The position numbers were made by a program, and so were the translations under genes. DNA of 64,000 nt from assembly GCA_037143175.1 (NCBI GenBank), contig JBAWZF010000009.1:1959-65958 (forward strand). The letters run 5' to 3'. The DNA is from a bacterium (GTDB taxonomy: Bacteria > Verrucomicrobiota > Kiritimatiellia > CAIKKV01 > CAITUY01). Below are positions 8,288-43,274 of the stretch, piece after piece. The stretch's first letter is position 1, and each line of letters starts with the position of its first letter. The notes under the pieces are model-generated. The model had not been told where the DNA came from. It saw only the letters and a list, made by a program, of their open reading frames with translations, and did no database searches.

Positions 8288-9283
8288 TTGAGAGGAAGTG
8301 TTGTTGTGGAAGTTCAGGACTGGATCTCGATTGTCAGAGCTATGGATGAGGATAAGGCCATAGATGATGTGACCGCTGTGGCCGTGCTGCAGGCGGACGC
8401 GGATGACCTTCCCCGCCTGATGGATGCGGCAACCCGGGTGCGGGCACGTTATTTCGGGAAGTACGTTAATTTATGTTCGATTCTTAATGCTCGTAGCGGA
8501 GCCTGCAGTGAAAATTGCTCCTATTGTGCGCAATCGTCCCATCATAAAACAAAAGTGGAGATTTACGCGTTGAAAGACGCCGGGAAAATCGGGGCGGCGT
8601 ATCAGTCGGCAGGGCAAACCCCGATACGTCGTTATGGGGTTGTGACCAGTGGTGACGCTCTGAGTGAGGCTGAGTTGGATGAGGTGTGTAGGGCCATACG
8701 GGCGAATTCAGCACACCCCGTCTTATGGTGTGCATCGCTGGGAGGTTTGACACAGCAACAATTAGCACGCCTGAAGGCGGCGGGCATGCGACGGTATCAT
8801 CATAACCTTGAAACCGCTCCCAGTTTTTTCAATACAATCTGTACCACACATACATTTGAAGATCGCTTGAGAACCTTGCGTTTGGCCCGCTCTGTGGGTT
8901 TGGAACTTTGTAGTGGCGGATTGATGGGGATGGGTGAAACGCTTGAGCAGCGCGTCGAGTTTGCGCGTATTCTTGCCAACGAGCAGGTCGATTCTATTCC
9001 ATTGAATTTTTTGGTACCGATTCCCGGTACTCCTCTCGAAAATCAGGAACCCATGTCTCCGCTTGAAATACTCAAAATGGTGATCATGGTACGGCTGATG
9101 GTCCTAAAGGCGGATGTACGGGTTTGTGGCGGACGCGGGCATTTACGTGATCTCCAGAGCCTGCTGTTTTTTGCCGGCGCAACCTCGATCATGGTTGGAC
9201 CATTATTGACGGTGCCAGGCCGTGAGGTGAAGCATGATGTACAGATGATTACTGATCTTGGCCTCGAAATTGAACAAAATTGA
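8288..9283 (+). CDS. bioB: Biotin synthase (radical SAM)
   Basis: Radical-SAM cluster motif CSENCSYCAQ; YHHNLET and GGLMGMGET motifs. The exact start is uncertain (TTG at 8288, or an internal GTG/ATG). Confidence 0.9.
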   Translation: MRGSVVVEVQDWISIVRAMDEDKAIDDVTAVAVLQADADDLPRLMDAATRVRARYFGKYVNLCSILNARSGACSENCSYCAQSSHHKTKVEIYALKDAGKIGAAYQSAGQTPIRRYGVVTSGDALSEAELDEVCRAIRANSAHPVLWCASLGGLTQQQLARLKAAGMRRYHHNLETAPSFFNTICTTHTFEDRLRTLRLARSVGLELCSGGLMGMGETLEQRVEFARILANEQVDSIPLNFLVPIPGTPLENQEPMSPLEILKMVIMVRLMVLKADVRVCGGRGHLRDLQSLLFFAGATSIMVGPLLTVPGREVKHDVQMITDLGLEIEQN

Positions 9284-9336: not shown

Positions 9337-9777
9337 ATGACCATGGCTAAAGATAAGGAAATCCACGATCCGAACGATATTCGCGATTCTGATATCGTTT
9401 TTGATTGTCCCTTTTGCGGTAAAAGTCTTGCCATTGACTGCCGTGGCGCAGGTTTGACAATTGCCTGTCCTGATTGTAGCAACAAAATCGAAATCCCCAT
9501 TCCTGAAGGCATGGAGGTCTCCGACATCGATAGTTCGGATGCCGACAAGGCTGTTCGCATCATACATATGCGCGAAGTGATCTCCGATTCACAGCAGCGT
9601 ATTATGGAATTGGAAGAGGAAGTGAAAGATGTCACTTTACGCCGGGATGCCTTAGAAGCCAATCGCACTGAGAACGCCTTGCGTTTTGAAGTCATTGAGC
9701 GGGAGGTGGCGAATATTCAGCGTTCCCTTCTGCGCATCAATGAAGTGTTGAACAGTGCTATTGGCACAGGCTCTTAA
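9337..9777 (+). CDS. Hypothetical zinc-ribbon plus coiled-coil protein
   Basis: 146-aa ORF preceded by AGGAGG. Two CxxC pairs (CPFCGK...CPDC), then a heptad-like acidic helix (QQRIMELEEEVKDV...). No family recognised. Confidence 0.6.
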   Translation: MTMAKDKEIHDPNDIRDSDIVFDCPFCGKSLAIDCRGAGLTIACPDCSNKIEIPIPEGMEVSDIDSSDADKAVRIIHMREVISDSQQRIMELEEEVKDVTLRRDALEANRTENALRFEVIEREVANIQRSLLRINEVLNSAIGTGS

Positions 9778-9792: not shown

Positions 9793-10974
9793 TCAGCGCA
9801 AGGCGGCAAGCAGTCTGCACTCCACAGAAGGCCAGGCATAAAAGTTCCGGACATACAGTTGGCCTGCTTTGCCCATGGCATCCCGTAGTGCAGGCTTGGC
9901 CAGGAACAGGGAGAGTGATTCCTCAAATTCCGGATAGTTTCGGAACCAGAAGCCTCCATTTGATTTCCGGCAATGATCCGGCATGACCTCCCCGGCTCCA
10001 TGTACCAAAACAGGGGTACCCGCCAACCAGGATTCTAGAATTACGATGCTGAAACTCTCGTTAACTGAAGGGTGGCAAAAGGCTACGGCCCCCGCCATGG
10101 CATCATGTTTTTCCTGTTCTGAGACGAACCCGAGATCCAGAATATGTGGGACCAGTCTTGTCGGGGGATCGTAGGGGCCGCTGCCCGTCAGAACCAATTT
10201 CAGATCGATGCCGGTTCGCTCACGAAAAACATCCAGATAATCTAAAAGGATGGGCGTTCCCTTCATCAGTTCCCTGCGGCCAGAATAGATAATGTAAGGG
10301 GTATTTAGATGATGGCACTGGCGGAATGCAGCTGGGTTTGATTCAAAGACATCCAAGCCCATGCCGACTACGTGAGCCTTTGAAAGATCCAGACCATACA
10401 ATCGCTGAGCCAGGTTCCGTTCGGGTTCGGCATTGAATATCCAGCCTTTGACGTTCAGGAACATTTCGCGGGTGGTTTTCAAATAGGCAAATGCCTCATC
10501 ATGTAAGCAGGGAAGCAGCAGCGTTTTTTCTGGATGAATCTGGCTGGAAAAATAGACCAGTGCGAAAAGATAAGGCCCCATGACAATGCGGTCGTACTGG
10601 TGGCCTTCTGTTTGCAGGTAGTCGTAAAGCGCCTGGCTGTTAACATTGTTTCTCTGCCAGTTCAATTCCTCATCACGTGTCAATTCAGCGTGGCGGCTGA
10701 TGCGATTCTGCAGCTTGATGAACGTATCCAGATCACGCCCGGAATCCACAGGGAAATAATGAACTGTGATGCCGGCAACTGAAATTCGTCCCGGGGGGAT
10801 TTCGTTTTCCCAGGTAAAATGGTTGCGGGCGCAGGTGGTCAGATAATCCACTTGCCAGCCTTGTGCCACCAGTCGTTCAGCAAGTTTGCGGAGAAGCGTT
10901 TCGGCACCTCCGATAGTTGGTCCCTCGGAGAATCGGGGTGATACAAAGGCTATGCGGGGTGGGGTAGCCATCAA
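9793..10974 (-). CDS. Glycosyltransferase, GT-B fold (family 4-like)
   Basis: 393-aa ORF. N-terminal IGGAETLLRKLAERL; C-terminal sugar-nucleotide binding region CHPSVNESFSIVILESWLAGTPVL. Confidence 0.8.
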   Translation of the reverse strand: MMATPPRIAFVSPRFSEGPTIGGAETLLRKLAERLVAQGWQVDYLTTCARNHFTWENEIPPGRISVAGITVHYFPVDSGRDLDTFIKLQNRISRHAELTRDEELNWQRNNVNSQALYDYLQTEGHQYDRIVMGPYLFALVYFSSQIHPEKTLLLPCLHDEAFAYLKTTREMFLNVKGWIFNAEPERNLAQRLYGLDLSKAHVVGMGLDVFESNPAAFRQCHHLNTPYIIYSGRRELMKGTPILLDYLDVFRERTGIDLKLVLTGSGPYDPPTRLVPHILDLGFVSEQEKHDAMAGAVAFCHPSVNESFSIVILESWLAGTPVLVHGAGEVMPDHCRKSNGGFWFRNYPEFEESLSLFLAKPALRDAMGKAGQLYVRNFYAWPSVECRLLAALR

Positions 10975-11423
10975 CCGGTGGGGAGTTTAGACTCCAGTTT
11001 GAGAATGCGGTCTTCAAGAGCTTTAATCTTGTCGCGGTATTTTCGATCCACTTCCTCGGTGGCGGATAGCAAGAGCCCGTTAACCTGATTTTGCTGAGAC
11101 CAAAGCCGATAGGTGTAGAACTTTAAAAGGTTCCAAATGGTTCTCTTGAGCTTGACCAGAAGAGGCGCCAAAATAGCCCGTCGTTCGCGGATTTCAAAGT
11201 CATTGATATCAATAAAAACGGCTTCGCGCAGGCTTTCCATGTAAAAATCGAAGAAGTTCTCATCCTTCTTCATATTCATCAGGTTGAACCGCTCTGCCCG
11301 GGCCAATTGGGCACCAGCATAAGCGCCGGACTGCATTTTGGCCGCAACGGTTTCGTGGATGTCAGCCATGATTTGCTGCACATCCACTCCCTCGGTGCCA
11401 ATTTCAAACAGTCCGGTACTCAT
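10971..11423 (-). CDS. Hypothetical protein with C-terminal coiled coil
   Basis: 150-aa ORF. ATGA-overlaps the downstream GT4 (10971-10974), and its start lies 16 nt downstream of the stop of the upstream carboxyltransferase gene. No recognisable motif. Confidence 0.55.
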   Translation of the reverse strand: MSTGLFEIGTEGVDVQQIMADIHETVAAKMQSGAYAGAQLARAERFNLMNMKKDENFFDFYMESLREAVFIDINDFEIRERRAILAPLLVKLKRTIWNLLKFYTYRLWSQQNQVNGLLLSATEEVDRKYRDKIKALEDRILKLESKLPTG

Positions 11424-11439: not shown

Positions 11440-13431
11440 TTACAGCTTTTGAACGCTGATCATCGGCTCATCTTTTTTCACGGGTGTGCCATGTGTAACT
11501 AACATGGAGATGACCTTGCATTTATAGGGCGCCTTGATCGGGTTGAAGAGTTTCATGGCTTCGACGATACAAACGGTGGCACCCTCTTCGACCACGTCAC
11601 CTTCTTGCGCAAATTCTGGTTTGCCGGGACCCGGTGAGCGATAAAACGTACCGTTCAGGGGCGCATTGATACTCGGACCTGCTGCAGGGGCGGGTTTGGC
11701 CGCAACTGGCGCAGGAGCCGTAGAGGTGGCGGGCGCGGTGCTCGCTGCCTTCGAGGCGGGAGCCGCGACGGGCGCGGCCGAAGTCGTCGTCGCGGGAGCG
11801 ATCAGAGCCCCTGATGTAACCCCTGCGGCATTGATACTGATGACACTGCCACCATGTTGGATCGTGATCTGCGAGAAGTTAAGTGCGCCGACTTTGTCGA
11901 CTAACAGATTAATCTGCTCGTAGTCCGACGTAGCCAGGAATGGTATTGCCGCGGCCGCAACTGGAGCCGGGGCGGGTTTTTCCGCAGCCACCTGCTTGGC
12001 TAGCTCAACGTCGGCCGGTATGGCCGGACGCTGTTCAGGCGGTAGGGCGCGCCATTTGAAATAATCGAGTGCTACTTCAGGGAAGAGGCAATATGAAATA
12101 ATGTCCTCTTCCTTTTTGATCAACTTGGGATCAACGCCTTCGGTGGCATCGGGAAGCATAGGCTTCAGTAGATCTGCCGGGCGCACCGTGATGGGCTTTT
12201 CATTACCCAGGATTTTTTTCATCACCGCTTTATCCATGGGAGCGGGGGACCGGCCATAGAGGCCCAGTGCGTAATCCTTCACTTCTTGCGCCACAAGCGA
12301 ATAGCGTTCGCCTGACAGAATGTTCATGACAGCCTGAATACCGATAATCTGGCTTGTCGGGGTGACGAGCGGCGGATAACCGAGGTCGGCCCGGACACGT
12401 GGAAGCTCTTCAAACACTTGATCCAGTTTATCCAGAGCACCTTGCTGAGCCAACTGACCACGTAGGTTTGAAATCATTCCCCCGGGAATGTGATGCAAAA
12501 GCACCTCTGGATCAATGATGTTGTCCGATTCATGTGCCTTGAGTTGGCGCAATGGTGCGAGTTCAACAAAGAATTTGCAGACTTGCCGCAACGCGTCCTG
12601 ATCAAGGTTAGCGTGGTAATGTGTTTCGGAGAAAATGGCCAGCATCGTCTCAACTGGGGGCTGGGACGAAAATCCCGCCATCGGCGAAATTGCACAGTCG
12701 ATGGCACCCGCACCAGCTCGAACCGCTTCGACATAGGTGGAAGAAGCCATTCCGCTGGTCGCATGGGAATGAACCTGGATGGGGATCTTGGTCTCGCGAA
12801 CCAAGGCTGATACCAGACGTTCTGCGGCCAGGGGTGTTAAGATGCCCGCCATATCCTTGATGCAAAGTGAATCAATTCCCATCGCAATTTGCTCTTTTGC
12901 CGCCTGGACATAAAGGTCGACGGTATGGACAGGGCTCACGGTGTAGCTGATGGTGCCTTGGGCATGGCCACCATATTTTTTGACGCATTTGATGGCTTGT
13001 TCCAAGTTACGCGAATCATTCAGGGCATCGAAAATACGGAAAATATCCACCCCGTTAGCGACTGCTAATGCCACAAAGCGATCGACGACGTCGTCGGCAT
13101 AGTTTTTGTACCCTAAAATGTTCTGGCCACGCAGAAGCATTTGGAGCGGTGTTTTCTTTGCGTGTGCCTTGATCTGGCGTAGGCGCTCCCAAGGATCTTC
13201 CCGAAGGAACCTCAAACAAACATCAAATGTGGCGCCCCCCCAAACTTCAAGTGAGTAGTAGCCGACATTATCGACGACATCAATAATCTTCATGATGTCG
13301 CTAGTACGCATCCGGGTGGCCCAGAGTGATTGGTGGGCATCACGGAGCGTAGTGTCTGTAATACGCAGGGGAATATGATTTGCGCTGTCGCGAACGATGT
13401 CCTGAGCTGTAAGCGTTTTTTTCTTAGCCAT
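11440..13431 (-). CDS. Pyruvate/oxaloacetate carboxyltransferase (5S/OadA/PycB-type) fused to a full-length AccB-like biotin carboxyl carrier
   Basis: 663-aa ORF. N-terminal TIM-barrel CT motifs LRDAHQS, HSHATSGMA and DCAISPMAGFSSQP. Ala/Pro-rich linkers. C-terminal part resembles complete BCCP (INLLVDKVGALNFSQITIQHGGSVISI...APLNGTFYRSPGPGKPEFAQEGD...CIVEAMKLFNPI). Confidence 0.9.
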   Translation of the reverse strand: MAKKKTLTAQDIVRDSANHIPLRITDTTLRDAHQSLWATRMRTSDIMKIIDVVDNVGYYSLEVWGGATFDVCLRFLREDPWERLRQIKAHAKKTPLQMLLRGQNILGYKNYADDVVDRFVALAVANGVDIFRIFDALNDSRNLEQAIKCVKKYGGHAQGTISYTVSPVHTVDLYVQAAKEQIAMGIDSLCIKDMAGILTPLAAERLVSALVRETKIPIQVHSHATSGMASSTYVEAVRAGAGAIDCAISPMAGFSSQPPVETMLAIFSETHYHANLDQDALRQVCKFFVELAPLRQLKAHESDNIIDPEVLLHHIPGGMISNLRGQLAQQGALDKLDQVFEELPRVRADLGYPPLVTPTSQIIGIQAVMNILSGERYSLVAQEVKDYALGLYGRSPAPMDKAVMKKILGNEKPITVRPADLLKPMLPDATEGVDPKLIKKEEDIISYCLFPEVALDYFKWRALPPEQRPAIPADVELAKQVAAEKPAPAPVAAAAIPFLATSDYEQINLLVDKVGALNFSQITIQHGGSVISINAAGVTSGALIAPATTTSAAPVAAPASKAASTAPATSTAPAPVAAKPAPAAGPSINAPLNGTFYRSPGPGKPEFAQEGDVVEEGATVCIVEAMKLFNPIKAPYKCKVISMLVTHGTPVKKDEPMISVQKL
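11680..11990 (-). other. Ala/Pro/Thr-rich low-complexity linker-coding region inside the carboxyltransferase-BCCP gene
   Basis: Translation is AEKPAPAPVAAAA...APATTTSAAPVAAPASKAASTAPATSTAPAPVAAKPAPAAG. It also produces a spurious Ala-rich antisense ORF (11666-11923). Confidence 0.8.
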
Positions 13432-13448
13432 AATCTATCCTTTCTAAA

Positions 13449-14393
13449 TTATTTAAAGCGGCCCATGGCGGCGAATTTTTCAAATCGACGTATGGTCAGT
13501 TTTTTTGGAGCTATCTTTTCGAGACTGTTTAAATGCTTAATGAGTGTTTTTCGTGTGGCTTTCATCGTTCCTTCATAGTTACGATGAGCGCCGCCAACGG
13601 GTTCAGGGATGATTTCGTCAATGATCTTCAGTTGAAGCAATGACTTTGCGGTAATTTTGAGCGCATTTGCCGCTTCGTTTGCCTTGGAACCATCACGCCA
13701 GAGAATGGAGGCACAGCCTTCTGGTGAAATGACCGAGTATACGGCGTTGGAAAGCATGAGTACAACATCGCCCACTCCAATACCTATAGCTCCTCCGCTA
13801 CCCCCTTCTCCGGTCACCAAAGCGATTACAGGCGTTTTCAGAGCTGACATCTCAAGCAGATTACGGGCGATGGCCTCCGCTTGACCGCGCTCTTCGGCGT
13901 CGCGGCCGGGAAAAGCTCCCGGCGTATCAATAAACGTAACTACCGGGATGTGGAACTTCTCCGCCAACTTCATCAACCGAAGGGCTTTGCGATAACCTTC
14001 TGGACAAGCCTGACCGAAGTTACACTTGATTTTTTCGTCGAGGTCGCGCCCTTTTTGATGACCAATCACCATGACGCGATGGTTCTCAATCATTGCAAAA
14101 CCGCCAATCATCCCGTGGTCATCACCAAAGAGTCGATCACCGTGAAGTTCAATAAATTCTGAGCAAAGTCCTGCGATAAAATCGCGGATCAGGGGGCGAT
14201 CAGGATGCCGCGCGACCTGCACGGTTTGCCAAGGTGTAAGATTGGCATAGGTTTCCTTCAGTTTTTCCGACCGCTCAAGTTCCAGTCGGTTGAGATCCTT
14301 GACAAGTGAACCTGTAGGTTCAGGGTTTTTGGCCTTAAATTCTTCAATTTTAGCCTCGATATCAGCGACGTCTTTTTCAAAATCCAGACTCAT
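13449..14393 (-). CDS. accA: Acetyl-CoA carboxylase carboxyltransferase subunit alpha
   Basis: Motifs HGDRLFGDD, TFIDTPGAFPG and TGEGGSGGAIGIG. Start set at MSLDFEK (GGAG 5 nt upstream) rather than the ORF-track start at 14444. Confidence 0.9.
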   Translation of the reverse strand: MSLDFEKDVADIEAKIEEFKAKNPEPTGSLVKDLNRLELERSEKLKETYANLTPWQTVQVARHPDRPLIRDFIAGLCSEFIELHGDRLFGDDHGMIGGFAMIENHRVMVIGHQKGRDLDEKIKCNFGQACPEGYRKALRLMKLAEKFHIPVVTFIDTPGAFPGRDAEERGQAEAIARNLLEMSALKTPVIALVTGEGGSGGAIGIGVGDVVLMLSNAVYSVISPEGCASILWRDGSKANEAANALKITAKSLLQLKIIDEIIPEPVGGAHRNYEGTMKATRKTLIKHLNSLEKIAPKKLTIRRFEKFAAMGRFK

Positions 14394-14447
14394 CGTTACT
14401 CCGTTTGTTAGGGGTTTCGAATTTACGTTCGATCTGCATGGCATTGC

Positions 14448-15290
14448 TCAGCGGCAGCCGGCGTATTTCAGAATCTTGTAGAGCATCTCTTTCATATCCT
14501 TGCGATGCACAATCATGTCCACGAAGCCGTGCTCTACGAGGTATTCTGCGGTTTGGAAGTCATCTGGAAGCTTCTGCTTGATCGTTTCCTCAATCACGCG
14601 ACGTCCCGCAAATCCGATGAGGGCGCGAGGTTCAGCAATATGAATATCGCCAACCATTGCGTAACTTGCTGATACACCGCCTGTTGTGGGGTCAGTCATG
14701 ATGGAGATATAAGGGAGATTGGCATCCCGAAGCTGTGCCAGTGCGGCACAGGTTTTGGGCATCTGCATCAAGGATACAATCCCTTCGTGCATACGTGCGC
14801 CACCGGAAGCTGACACAATAATATATGGAAGCTTATGCTTCACGGCATACATAGCAGCCAGAAGGATCTTTTCACCCGTCCCGCTGGCTAAACTTCCGCC
14901 CATGAAGCGAAAATCCATGATGGCCAAGGAGACCTTGACACCTTTGATCTTACCCGCACCGGTGACAACGGACTCTTTCATTCCCGTTTTTTCGCAATTC
15001 TCAGCCGCTTTTTCAGCGTATGGCCCCTTCGAGTCAGAGAACTTCAGGGGATCATTCCAACTGATTTTTTCGTTTGATTCGGTAAATGAGCCCTCATCTA
15101 ACAGCAAATTCACACGTTCCTGCCAGGTCAAGCGTTCATGAAAATGGCAACGGTCACAAACTTTAAGATTTCTTTCCCACTCTTCCTTATAAATGTGGGC
15201 TTTACAAGATGGACATTGAATCCAGATTTCCTCTTTTGTGGGGGAATCCGGTTTGGCGGCTGTCTTTTTCGTTTTGGTAAACCAACCCAT
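14448..15290 (-). CDS. accD: Acetyl-CoA carboxylase carboxyltransferase subunit beta
   Basis: N-terminal Zn ribbon CPSCKAHIYKEEWERNLKVCDRCHFH; MGGSLASGTGEK and SGGARMHEG motifs. Confidence 0.9.
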   Translation of the reverse strand: MGWFTKTKKTAAKPDSPTKEEIWIQCPSCKAHIYKEEWERNLKVCDRCHFHERLTWQERVNLLLDEGSFTESNEKISWNDPLKFSDSKGPYAEKAAENCEKTGMKESVVTGAGKIKGVKVSLAIMDFRFMGGSLASGTGEKILLAAMYAVKHKLPYIIVSASGGARMHEGIVSLMQMPKTCAALAQLRDANLPYISIMTDPTTGGVSASYAMVGDIHIAEPRALIGFAGRRVIEETIKQKLPDDFQTAEYLVEHGFVDMIVHRKDMKEMLYKILKYAGCR

Positions 15291-16174: not shown

Positions 16175-16361
16175 AATCTTTTTTTGTTTAAGTTCTTAAT
16201 TCTTACACTATAAATCTTTTGTATAGTCTTTACTATCGGGGTTACCCTGAAAGTTGAATCAGGGATTTCCTTAGATTACCATGTATTAATCAACCGCTTG
16301 CGGAATCGGTCTTGGATCGGTAAGGTGCGTTTTGTATTACATCTTGGAATTGAGGAATATA
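16175..16361. promoter_or_regulatory. AT-rich divergent intergenic region (putative promoters for the 131-aa ORF and the sugar-metabolism block)
   Basis: 187-nt non-coding gap between divergently oriented genes, noticeably AT-rich (e.g. TTTTTTTGTTTAAGTTCTTAATTCTTACACTATAAATC). No specific box assigned. Confidence 0.35.
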
Positions 16362-17240
16362 ATGCAGAATACGATCGTAAATTCATTATTATCCGTGACG
16401 GTTAAGCGGCATGGTGCTGAGTTGAGCGGATTAAAGGCGGCGGATGGCACAGAATATTTATGGCAGGCGGATCCTGCCGTCTGGGGGCGCCATGCTCCGC
16501 TCCTATTTCCGATTGTGGGAAAGCTTGTCCATGGCCGGTATCTTTATGAGGGTAAGCACTATGAGATGAATTCGCATGGGTTCGCCCGGGATATGGAATT
16601 CGAGTTGCTGCAGGCCACTGAAAATACCCTGACGTATCGGCTTCAGGCCACTCCTGCGACCCGGAAGCAATATCCCTTTGAGTTTGACCTGATCCGTCAT
16701 TATCGCCTCGCCGGTGGCGTTTTGGAGGTGACTACCGAGGTGGCTAACAAGGGGGCCACTGTCATGCCGTTTTCGATTGGTGAACATCCTGGATTCGGGC
16801 TGAATTGGGGGGCGGGCGATCGCGTGGAGGACTACGCATTACAGTTTGAAAAGTCGGAACGGTTGGACGCCCATCTCCTGGACGCGAATGGTTTGCTGTC
16901 TGCTCAGACCGAACGGATTCTGTCCAATAAGACGGTGCTGCCTTTACAGCGCGACCTGTTTGATCGGGATGCACTGATTTTCCTGAAAATCAAATCCCGA
17001 AAGATCAGTCTGTGTTCACGCCGGCATGCGCGCCGGGTGACGGTTGAATTTCCCGGTTATCCTTATCTGGGCATCTGGGCCAAGCCTGGTGCACCGTTTG
17101 TGTGCATTGAACCGTGGTATGGCCATGCCGATCCTGCCGGACATGATGGCGAAATGATGAATAAACCCGGGATTATCAAGGTGGATCCCTCGGCCTCTTT
17201 CTCCTGTACCTGGCGGGTAGGGGTAATGCCTAAAGACTGA
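16362..17240 (+). CDS. Aldose 1-epimerase (galactose mutarotase-like) family protein
   Basis: Motifs GRHAPLLFPIVGKL, HGFAR and IGEHPGF. Start set at MQNTIV (GAGG 7 nt upstream). Confidence 0.8.
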   Translation: MQNTIVNSLLSVTVKRHGAELSGLKAADGTEYLWQADPAVWGRHAPLLFPIVGKLVHGRYLYEGKHYEMNSHGFARDMEFELLQATENTLTYRLQATPATRKQYPFEFDLIRHYRLAGGVLEVTTEVANKGATVMPFSIGEHPGFGLNWGAGDRVEDYALQFEKSERLDAHLLDANGLLSAQTERILSNKTVLPLQRDLFDRDALIFLKIKSRKISLCSRRHARRVTVEFPGYPYLGIWAKPGAPFVCIEPWYGHADPAGHDGEMMNKPGIIKVDPSASFSCTWRVGVMPKD

Positions 17241-42788: not shown

Positions 42789-43274
42789 TTACTTCTTCTC
42801 CATCAGGTATTTGTTCAGCACGTTTTCAGTGATTACCTCCACCTTGTACTTAGCCTGCACCAGTGCGAGATCCGTTCCGTGTTCACGGGCGAGTCGGCGT
42901 GCGGCGGGAGTGGCCCGGAGTGCGCCGGTCACGGCTCCGGCTTGTTTGCCTTTTTCCAAGGAAACGTTTTGAACCTTCCGTGTTAGCGTCTCCATCAGAC
43001 GGCGGTTAGAGGCGCTCACATCAGGCAAACTGTCGATCGTGTCTCCGATAAGGGCGACAACGTATCCTGCCGGGAGACTACTCTTCACTTCGGCCAGTGT
43101 TGCAAGCAACACTCCCGAGCGTGGTGCTTCCAACTCGAATGCCACCTTACTAGTGGACAGTTCGATCAGCGGATCTCCCTTATTGACGTACTCTCCCTTT
43201 TTTTTCAGCCAGGCGGTGATTGCCTGTTCTTCGTCGTTTTCGGTCAGTTTTGGGATTTTGACTTTTGTAACCAT
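42789..43274 (-). CDS. Free-standing lipoyl(biotinyl)-domain plus peripheral-subunit-binding-domain protein (E2 without catalytic domain)
   Basis: 161-aa ORF. Lipoyl-domain pattern KIPKLTENDEEQAITAWLKKKGEYVNKGDPLIELSTSKVAFELEAPRSGVL, with SKV in place of DKA. PSBD pattern LRATPAARRLAREHGTDLALV...ITENVLNKYL. The ORF then stops 13 nt before fabG-like. Confidence 0.8.
   Translation of the reverse strand: MVTKVKIPKLTENDEEQAITAWLKKKGEYVNKGDPLIELSTSKVAFELEAPRSGVLLATLAEVKSSLPAGYVVALIGDTIDSLPDVSASNRRLMETLTRKVQNVSLEKGKQAGAVTGALRATPAARRLAREHGTDLALVQAKYKVEVITENVLNKYLMEKK

Follow-up and report, generated by a model that had tools for sequence, protein, structure and literature searches.

A candidate ATP-independent oxaloacetate:acetyl-CoA transcarboxylase encoded by an operon of accD, accA and a carboxyltransferase-AccB fusion gene in Kiritimatiellia

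Analysis of a 64,000-nt stretch of DNA from a lake-water bacterium of the PVC group (hereinafter the window; GCA_037143175.1, contig JBAWZF010000009.1, positions 1,959-65,958) suggests that a three-gene operon on its minus strand, consisting of accD, accA and a gene for a protein (hereinafter the fusion) that unites a 5S-type oxaloacetate/pyruvate carboxyltransferase with an entire AccB-type biotin carrier, encodes a split, biotin-dependent oxaloacetate:acetyl-CoA transcarboxylase that would make malonyl-CoA without ATP, a prediction to which we assign a probability of about 0.7. The original prediction, made from the nucleotide sequence of the window, had proposed the same ATP-free transfer of CO2 from oxaloacetate to acetyl-CoA, and the failure to detect accC and accB, the conservation of the operon, and the presence of both a thumb and an N-terminal module in the carrier all lend it support. 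Both carboxyltransferase components, the oxaloacetate/pyruvate-specific 5S domain and the acyl-CoA-specific AccD/AccA, are encoded in the one operon, which by its sequence appears to fit the functional class of biotin-dependent transcarboxylases, with a new subunit arrangement. The host assembly is a 3.3-Mb metagenome-assembled genome (MAG) that comprises 107 contigs and is 95% complete.

AccD and AccA take the carboxyl group only from carboxy-biotin, and the sole known chemistry of the 5S domain is the reversible conversion of oxaloacetate and biotin to pyruvate and carboxybiotin. Searches of the host genome for a biotin carboxylase returned no match of accC grade: the best hit (57 bits) is CarB, another (51 bits) is PurD, these two being the only ATP-grasp matches, and the Biotin_carb_C domain was not detected anywhere in the genome. 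Nor was a separate accB found: besides a short carrier encoded on a different contig, the AccB model matched nothing but the fusion's tail. The lack of accC in the window, remarked upon in the original prediction along with a proposal to search the whole genome for separate accB and accC, therefore extends to the remainder of the 95%-complete assembly, from which neither gene was recovered. The only Carboxyl_trans genes of the genome are accD and accA, and AccD/AccA is its only acyl-CoA carboxyltransferase. Family searches further identified in the genome a plsX-fabH-fabD-fabG-acpP-fabF cluster and a GTP-dependent phosphoenolpyruvate carboxykinase (GTP-PEPCK), and found neither phosphoenolpyruvate (PEP) carboxylase nor ATP-PEPCK. 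Type II fatty-acid synthesis (FASII) needs malonyl-CoA, and no other route to this metabolite was found, there being no detectable biotin carboxylase and no other carboxyltransferase. The means of biotinylation are present in the form of a BirA-like gene and BioB, the latter encoded in the window at 8288-9283.

Given these components, we propose that GTP-PEPCK would convert PEP, CO2 and GDP to oxaloacetate and GTP, after which the 5S domain would move the carboxyl group of oxaloacetate to the biotin of its own C-terminal carrier, with release of pyruvate. The carrier would then swing on its Pro/Ala linker to AccD/AccA, which would carboxylate acetyl-CoA to yield malonyl-CoA for FabD and FASII. 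Neither ATP nor biotin carboxylase would be required and, since in the PEPCK reaction the phosphoryl bond of PEP is retained in GTP, malonyl-CoA would be obtained at no net ATP cost. From the same reasoning we infer the coupling of the two half-reactions via the fused carrier, the direction of the flux and the association of the fusion with AccD/AccA in a physical complex; a modelled complex of AccD, AccA and the AccB-like tail (ipSAE 0.01) constitutes no evidence either way.

In the carboxyltransferase part of the fusion, residues 22-285 form an HMGL-like TIM barrel and residues 310-466 a PYC_OADA domain; RDAHQS (D31), KDMAG (K192) and HSH (H221, H223) are retained, these residues all being invariant in 24 homologues. 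The 5S domain scores 460 bits with Vibrio cholerae OadA (2NX9), 456 bits with PycB (5KS8) and 423 bits with the transcarboxylase 5S subunit (1RQB). All the motifs quoted in the original prediction can be located in the protein, namely LRDAHQS at residues 29-35, HSHATSGMA at residues 221-229 and the AccB-like stretches, among them INLLVDKVGALNFSQITIQHGGSVISI at residues 507-533 and the thumb-containing core of the tail, APLNGTFYRSPGPGKPEFAQEGD...CIVEAMKLFNPI.

It is the tail that sets the protein apart. Against the full-length biotin carboxyl carrier protein (BCCP) model TIGR00531, it aligns over model positions 3-155 of 156 (101-106 bits), and its alignment with Escherichia coli AccB (PDB 4HR7_B) runs end to end (E 8e-21) with no gap in the thumb. 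The biotinyl domain likewise aligns without gaps through the thumb of E. coli BCCP (1BDO/1A6X), while the tail matches the 1.3S subunit (1DCZ) and the thumb-less carriers of the OadA type at only about 2e-4. The biotin-attachment lysine is predicted to be K627 in the motif EAMKL (codon 11551-11553). The N-terminal module precedes a flexible linker and carries residues D503, Y504, L510 and T523, which are invariant among homologues; in an AlphaFold2 (AF2) model of the whole fusion, which is of moderate confidence (mean pLDDT 62.7), it forms a helix at residues 501-517 and strands within residues 521-542 (pLDDT 58-71). In E. coli AccB, the N-terminal 30 residues form an alpha/beta/beta motif (PMC11160672), which the predicted helix and three strands would fit. 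Accordance of the tail with a whole AccB, including N-terminal module and thumb, had been claimed from inspection alone and is borne out by these alignments. Judging by sequence, the carrier of the fusion is of the acetyl-CoA carboxylase (ACC) type, that is, the type that works with AccA/AccD.

The other two genes are assigned by equivalog models, AccD scoring 365.5 bits with TIGR00515 (cut-off 317) and AccA scoring 463 bits with NF004344 and 418.6 bits with TIGR00513, both above cut-off. In AccD, M1, W3 and the four cysteines are invariant across 25 homologues. Open reading frames (ORFs) and translations agree with the description of three consecutive minus-strand genes in the order accD, accA and a 663-aa fusion (Table 1). 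As for the spacers, the 17 nt given for accA and the fusion stand, and the 3 nt given for accD and accA hold only for the first ATG of the accA ORF. The ATG at position 14393 is the probable start, since a GGAG stands 7 nt ahead of it and a start there fits the 311-315 aa of homologues; accD and accA would therefore be separated by about 54 nt. A scan for promoters and terminators yielded nothing above chance.

Table 1. Genes of the operon and segments of the fusion protein, in window coordinates.
Feature	Position	Strand	Basis
accD, acetyl-CoA carboxyltransferase beta, 280 aa, N-terminal Zn ribbon	14448-15290	(-)	TIGR00515, Zn_ribbon_ACC, Carboxyl_trans
accA, acetyl-CoA carboxyltransferase alpha, 331-aa ORF	13449-14444; probable start ATG 14393, giving 314 aa	(-)	NF004344, TIGR00513
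Fusion gene, 663 aa, 5S-type oxaloacetate/pyruvate carboxyltransferase + complete AccB-type carrier	11440-13431	(-)	
5S carboxyltransferase domain, residues 22-466	12034-13368	(-)	PF00682 + PF02436
AccB N-terminal-like module, residues 501-542, one helix + three strands (predicted)	11806-11931	(-)	TIGR00531, E. coli AccB alignment, AF2
Pro/Ala/Thr/Ser-rich flexible linker, residues 543-585	11677-11805	(-)	sequence; pLDDT 31-37, no secondary structure
Biotinyl domain with AccB-type thumb, residues 586-663	11443-11676	(-)	PF00364; pLDDT 84-94

Databases label the family of the fusion PycB or OadA, and the genome does encode an OadB. A second 5S-type protein, only 27% identical to the fusion, is encoded elsewhere in the genome and runs off the end of its contig (C95:3-1463(-), L010), and at the start of another contig (C18:1-1792(+), L008) a thumb-less biotinyl domain precedes OadB (562 bits). 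By their sequences, these two contig ends appear to be parts of one canonical but divergent OadA-OadB sodium pump that is split over two contigs. The BirA-like gene adjoins the divergent OadA and is transcribed divergently from it. Since OadB adjoins its own divergent OadA, with a thumb-less carrier, the possibility that the fusion is simply OadA was rejected. The original prediction had held that a canonical accB-accC pair and oadB/oadG or pycA elsewhere in the genome would reduce the fusion to OadA or PycB; oadB does exist, but in the company of its own OadA, and the canonical accB-accC pair was not found. As separate observations on the pump, the divergent OadA has FRDGFQS at the place of LRDAHQS in the fusion, and the OadB ORF has an N-terminal extension of ~125 aa with a hydrophobic helix that may be a fused OadG-like segment.

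A decarboxylase role could nevertheless take other forms: the fusion could be a second alpha subunit for OadB; AccD/AccA, the carrier and OadB could constitute a Malonomonas-like sodium-pumping malonyl-CoA decarboxylase; or the pump could run in reverse and carboxylate biotin. We regard this set of alternatives as distinctly improbable. Biotin-dependent malonate decarboxylase does use AccA/AccD-like subunits, the Oad pump is reversible in vitro, and OadB is at hand in the genome; yet the match of the fusion to TIGR01108 (oadA), at 682 bits, falls below the cut-off of 756.5, OadB is served by the adjacent OadA, no member of the fusion clade described below is linked to OadB, and the fusion itself is linked to accDA and not to oadB. 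Furthermore, were the enzyme a decarboxylase, FASII would be left without a source of malonyl-CoA.

The proposed transcarboxylase is conserved well beyond the host genome. In a sample of 41 genomes of the same order (13 genera, 7 families), the fused AccB-like tail is present in 39, within ORFs of 650-736 aa where complete and shorter ones at contig ends, and wherever accA and the fusion gene share a contig, accA is located directly upstream on the same strand. The complete accD-accA-fusion operon is intact in all 20 relatives examined, with a fusion of 644-700 aa directly after accA; within the genus, the operon proteins are 85-96% identical and the catalytic residues are intact. No accC was detected in 40 of the 41 genomes. 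Conservation of the fusion and of its linkage to accAD, which had been suggested as a check, is accordingly seen over 13 genera and also in other phyla, the same operon being present in public MAGs of the PVC-group, Victivallales, Kiritimatiellae, Fibrobacteres and Bacteroidales. Among five public operon-bearing genomes tested, biotin carboxylase was not found in four (Victivallales, Fibrobacteres and two unclassified MAGs) and is present in one, the Bacteroidales MAG.

At the level of the phylum, biotin carboxylase is present in 195 of the 251 genomes sampled. Within the same class, no biotin carboxylase was found in families f9, f11 (0/14), f18, f20 (0/11) and f25, in all of which a 5S protein bearing a thumb-type carrier is encoded. 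Conversely, 15 of the 16 same-class families that do possess the carboxylase gave no match to the tail, f26 being the only one that matched. The fusion follows accDA in f9, f18, f25 and f26, and in f11 and f20 accDA is located elsewhere in the genome, sometimes as one AccD-AccA polypeptide.

In a tree of 109 5S domains, the thumb-type fusions, whether linked to accDA or not, group in a single clade (SH-aLRT 98; 100 at an inner node), and all 31 biotin-carboxylase-linked (PycB), 6 OadB-linked and 11 12S-linked proteins fall outside it. The topology suggests that the fusion descends from a pyruvate carboxylase beta subunit that already had an ACC-like carrier, and that loss of the carboxylase followed. 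One alternative is a shared-carrier, ATP-dependent system, in which a PycB-like fusion would be charged by a missed or unrecognized biotin carboxylase and its carrier would serve the carboxylation of both pyruvate and acetyl-CoA. The fusion matches NF006761, a domain-level model named 'pyruvate carboxylase subunit B', at 763 bits, and falls below the cut-off of the PycB equivalog models NF010644 and NF010645; the sister clade consists of carboxylase-linked PycB, mostly with a thumb-type carrier; and the N-terminal module of E. coli AccB belongs to the assembly of biotin carboxylase with BCCP (PMC11160672). To hold, this alternative would have to explain why neither Biotin_carb_C nor an accC-grade match was found in the host genome, in 40 of the 41 genomes of the order, or in f11 and f20, many of these genomes being >90% complete, and why the ATP-grasp matches were only CarB and PurD; systematic loss of one gene during assembly over so many MAGs is implausible. 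We therefore deem it unlikely, if the likeliest of the competitors; the genomes that combine a biotin carboxylase with the fusion count in its favor.

These genomes, namely G029, G179 of the same class and the Bacteroidales MAG, are among the observations that weigh against a transcarboxylase. Because they combine the two, the hardware of the operon can also serve as a shared carrier for ATP-dependent carboxylation, and they are the main caveat for extending the reading to lineages other than those whose genomes yielded no carboxylase. Further, the sister group in the tree is biotin-carboxylase-linked PycB, most members of which have a thumb-type carrier too; the fusions of f11 and f20 are not beside accDA and are without the AccB N-terminal module; the 5S domain is indistinguishable in sequence from those of OadA, PycB or the transcarboxylase 5S subunit; and the score of the tail (106 bits) is just below the TIGR00531 cut-off of 115. 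Finally, in a 107-contig MAG the absence of a gene is never absolute, so that it is the concordance of many genomes, all of them MAGs, that carries the argument.

Within the order, a biotin carboxylase was found in G029 alone (G029:C28:36804-38129; L127:3302-4726). The gene is an orphan without accB beside it, is located between purB and a HAD-Sua5 fusion/purE, and lies on the same contig as the operon at a distance of 32 kb, a situation that is also counted in favor of a shared carrier. This orphan may reflect either the ancestral state or re-acquisition.

The remaining competitor to the transcarboxylase in the direction of malonyl-CoA is either the reverse reaction, whereby malonyl-CoA and pyruvate would yield oxaloacetate for anaplerosis, or a decaying relic in a scavenger of fatty acids. 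Transcarboxylation is close to equilibrium, which counts for reversal; against it, PEPCK already gives oxaloacetate and no other malonyl-CoA route was found. The sequence identity within the genus, the intact catalytic residues, the complete FASII cluster and the cover by RNA libraries are hardly those of a relic, and we consider either version highly improbable.

With respect to expression, one freshwater sample (runs X6 and X7) gave metatranscriptome contigs that match the window at 100% identity over 11.3-15.2 kb and run across the accD/accA junction as well as the accA/fusion junction, and a second study yielded metatranscriptome contigs of a strain with 95-99% identity. None of four runs gave cover for the flanking segments 10068-10601 and 16209-17000, and for 10602-10868 there is a trace in X6 only; because the flanks are silent in the metatranscriptome, carry-over of DNA is unlikely. 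Contigs of this kind cannot prove a single transcript.

Several observations concern the surroundings of the operon and its relatives. Directly after the fusion gene (9793-11423, minus strand) there follow genes for a 150-aa protein without a family match and a GT4 glycosyltransferase, an arrangement shared by no relatives other than the two nearest, L017 and L019. The RNA contigs cover the junction of the fusion gene with the 150-aa gene and do not cover GT4. Given this narrow conservation and the lack of RNA-contig cover for GT4, the two are probably not members of the system. A 146-aa zinc-ribbon protein encoded on the plus strand (9337-9777) is kept in L019; in the second study, RNA-contig depth over the segment analysed is greatest at this gene, at about 10x in X14. 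The genome's fifth Biotin_lipoyl match is a lipoyl-type domain at 43047-43265 (minus strand) in a 162-aa ORF and is not the biotin carrier of this system. Two ORFs resembling CarB, the large subunit of carbamoyl-phosphate synthase, encode 1104 and 1092 aa and are found within a few kb of each other on one contig (G000:C1:14645-25809; L001-L005), and two such frames are seen in most relatives too.

In another class of the phylum, genus g60 of family f35 (G055-G168; L110-L121) has genomes of 2-3 Mb, many of them closed, and no biotin carboxylase was found in 20 of the 21 genomes sampled from the family. The five genomes checked have a single 12S-type carboxyltransferase gene only, no accA or accD, and a 5S protein of ~505 aa without a carrier tail. 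A 12S/5S transcarboxylase able to use acetyl-CoA as well is one possible source of malonyl-CoA in these bacteria. For several families of the host's own class, AccD and AccA share one open frame of 574-589 aa (G123:C2:69177-70427, G235:C1:4087487-4088734, L106, L109), which a single stop codon interrupts in two genomes.

In textbooks, the carboxylation of acetyl-CoA with an ATP-dependent biotin carboxylase figures as the committed step common to all bacterial fatty-acid synthesis; it is also an antibiotic target. On the evidence of the genomes surveyed, we lean toward the broader view that the order of the host, further families of Kiritimatiellia and the Victivallales and Fibrobacteres MAGs start all their fatty-acid synthesis by an ATP-free transcarboxylase assembled from ACC parts and a 5S protein, with the AccB N-terminal module recruited to keep the complex together; the ATP-dependent committed step of lipid synthesis would then be replaced for the first time in bacteria. 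If so, entire anaerobic lineages would bypass that step, with malonyl-CoA made at no net ATP via PEPCK and transcarboxylation, and the metabolic reconstructions of Kiritimatiellota, Lentisphaerota and related MAGs would change. The operon would furthermore offer metabolic engineering a natural three-gene module for ATP-free synthesis of malonyl-CoA. No report of a bacterial system of AccD/AccA with a 5S-AccB fusion was found in the literature, and transcarboxylation is absent from a 2026 review of alternative routes to malonyl-CoA (PMC12799670).

Comparison with the known biotin-dependent systems places the predicted enzyme between several of them. It shares with E. coli AccABCD the AccA and AccD subunits, which match at the equivalog level, and a carrier with N-terminal module, linker, thumb and EAMK; it differs in that no AccC was found in the genome, nor in 40 of the 41 genomes of the order, and in that AccB is the tail of a 5S carboxyltransferase instead of a free protein. 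With PycB and OadA it has in common the succession of carboxyltransferase and biotinyl domain (456-460 bits to 5KS8/2NX9), but no PycA partner was found, OadB is served by another OadA, the carrier is of the AccB type, and the accDA-tied proteins form a separate clade. The classical transcarboxylase is the 12S/5S/1.3S enzyme of Propionibacterium (EC 2.1.3.1), which acts on methylmalonyl-CoA and pyruvate. As in that enzyme, a 5S component and an acyl-CoA carboxyltransferase would be coupled by a swinging biotin carrier independently of ATP; here, in contrast, AccD/AccA replaces the 12S hexamer of the PccB type, a thumbed AccB fused to 5S replaces the free, thumb-less 1.3S subunit, and the predicted acceptor is acetyl-CoA, not propionyl-CoA.

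A close functional parallel comes from anaerobic protists. A single-chain oxaloacetate:acetyl-CoA transcarboxylase has been characterized from Entamoeba and Giardia (PMC8136499), and the single-chain ACCT/PycB enzyme is present in Entamoeba histolytica, Giardia, Mastigamoeba, retortamonads and Monocercomonoides, anaerobes without conventional ACC (PMC8136499, PMC7985675, PMC12308965). Homologue searches with the fusion or AccA recovered no single-chain AccDA-5S-BCCP protein (with AccA, only AccD-AccA and unrelated fusions), which is weak evidence; the one-frame AccD-AccA proteins mentioned above could, by analogy, be seen as a partial step toward the single-chain architecture of the protists. 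The predicted reaction is the same, oxaloacetate and acetyl-CoA giving pyruvate and malonyl-CoA, as is the combination of two carboxyltransferases and a carrier with no biotin carboxylase. Should the prediction hold, the operon would be a plausible bacterial relative of the protist transcarboxylase, in which, unlike in the one-polypeptide enzyme, the functions are distributed over three genes, with separate AccD and AccA and with the carrier fused to the 5S protein only.

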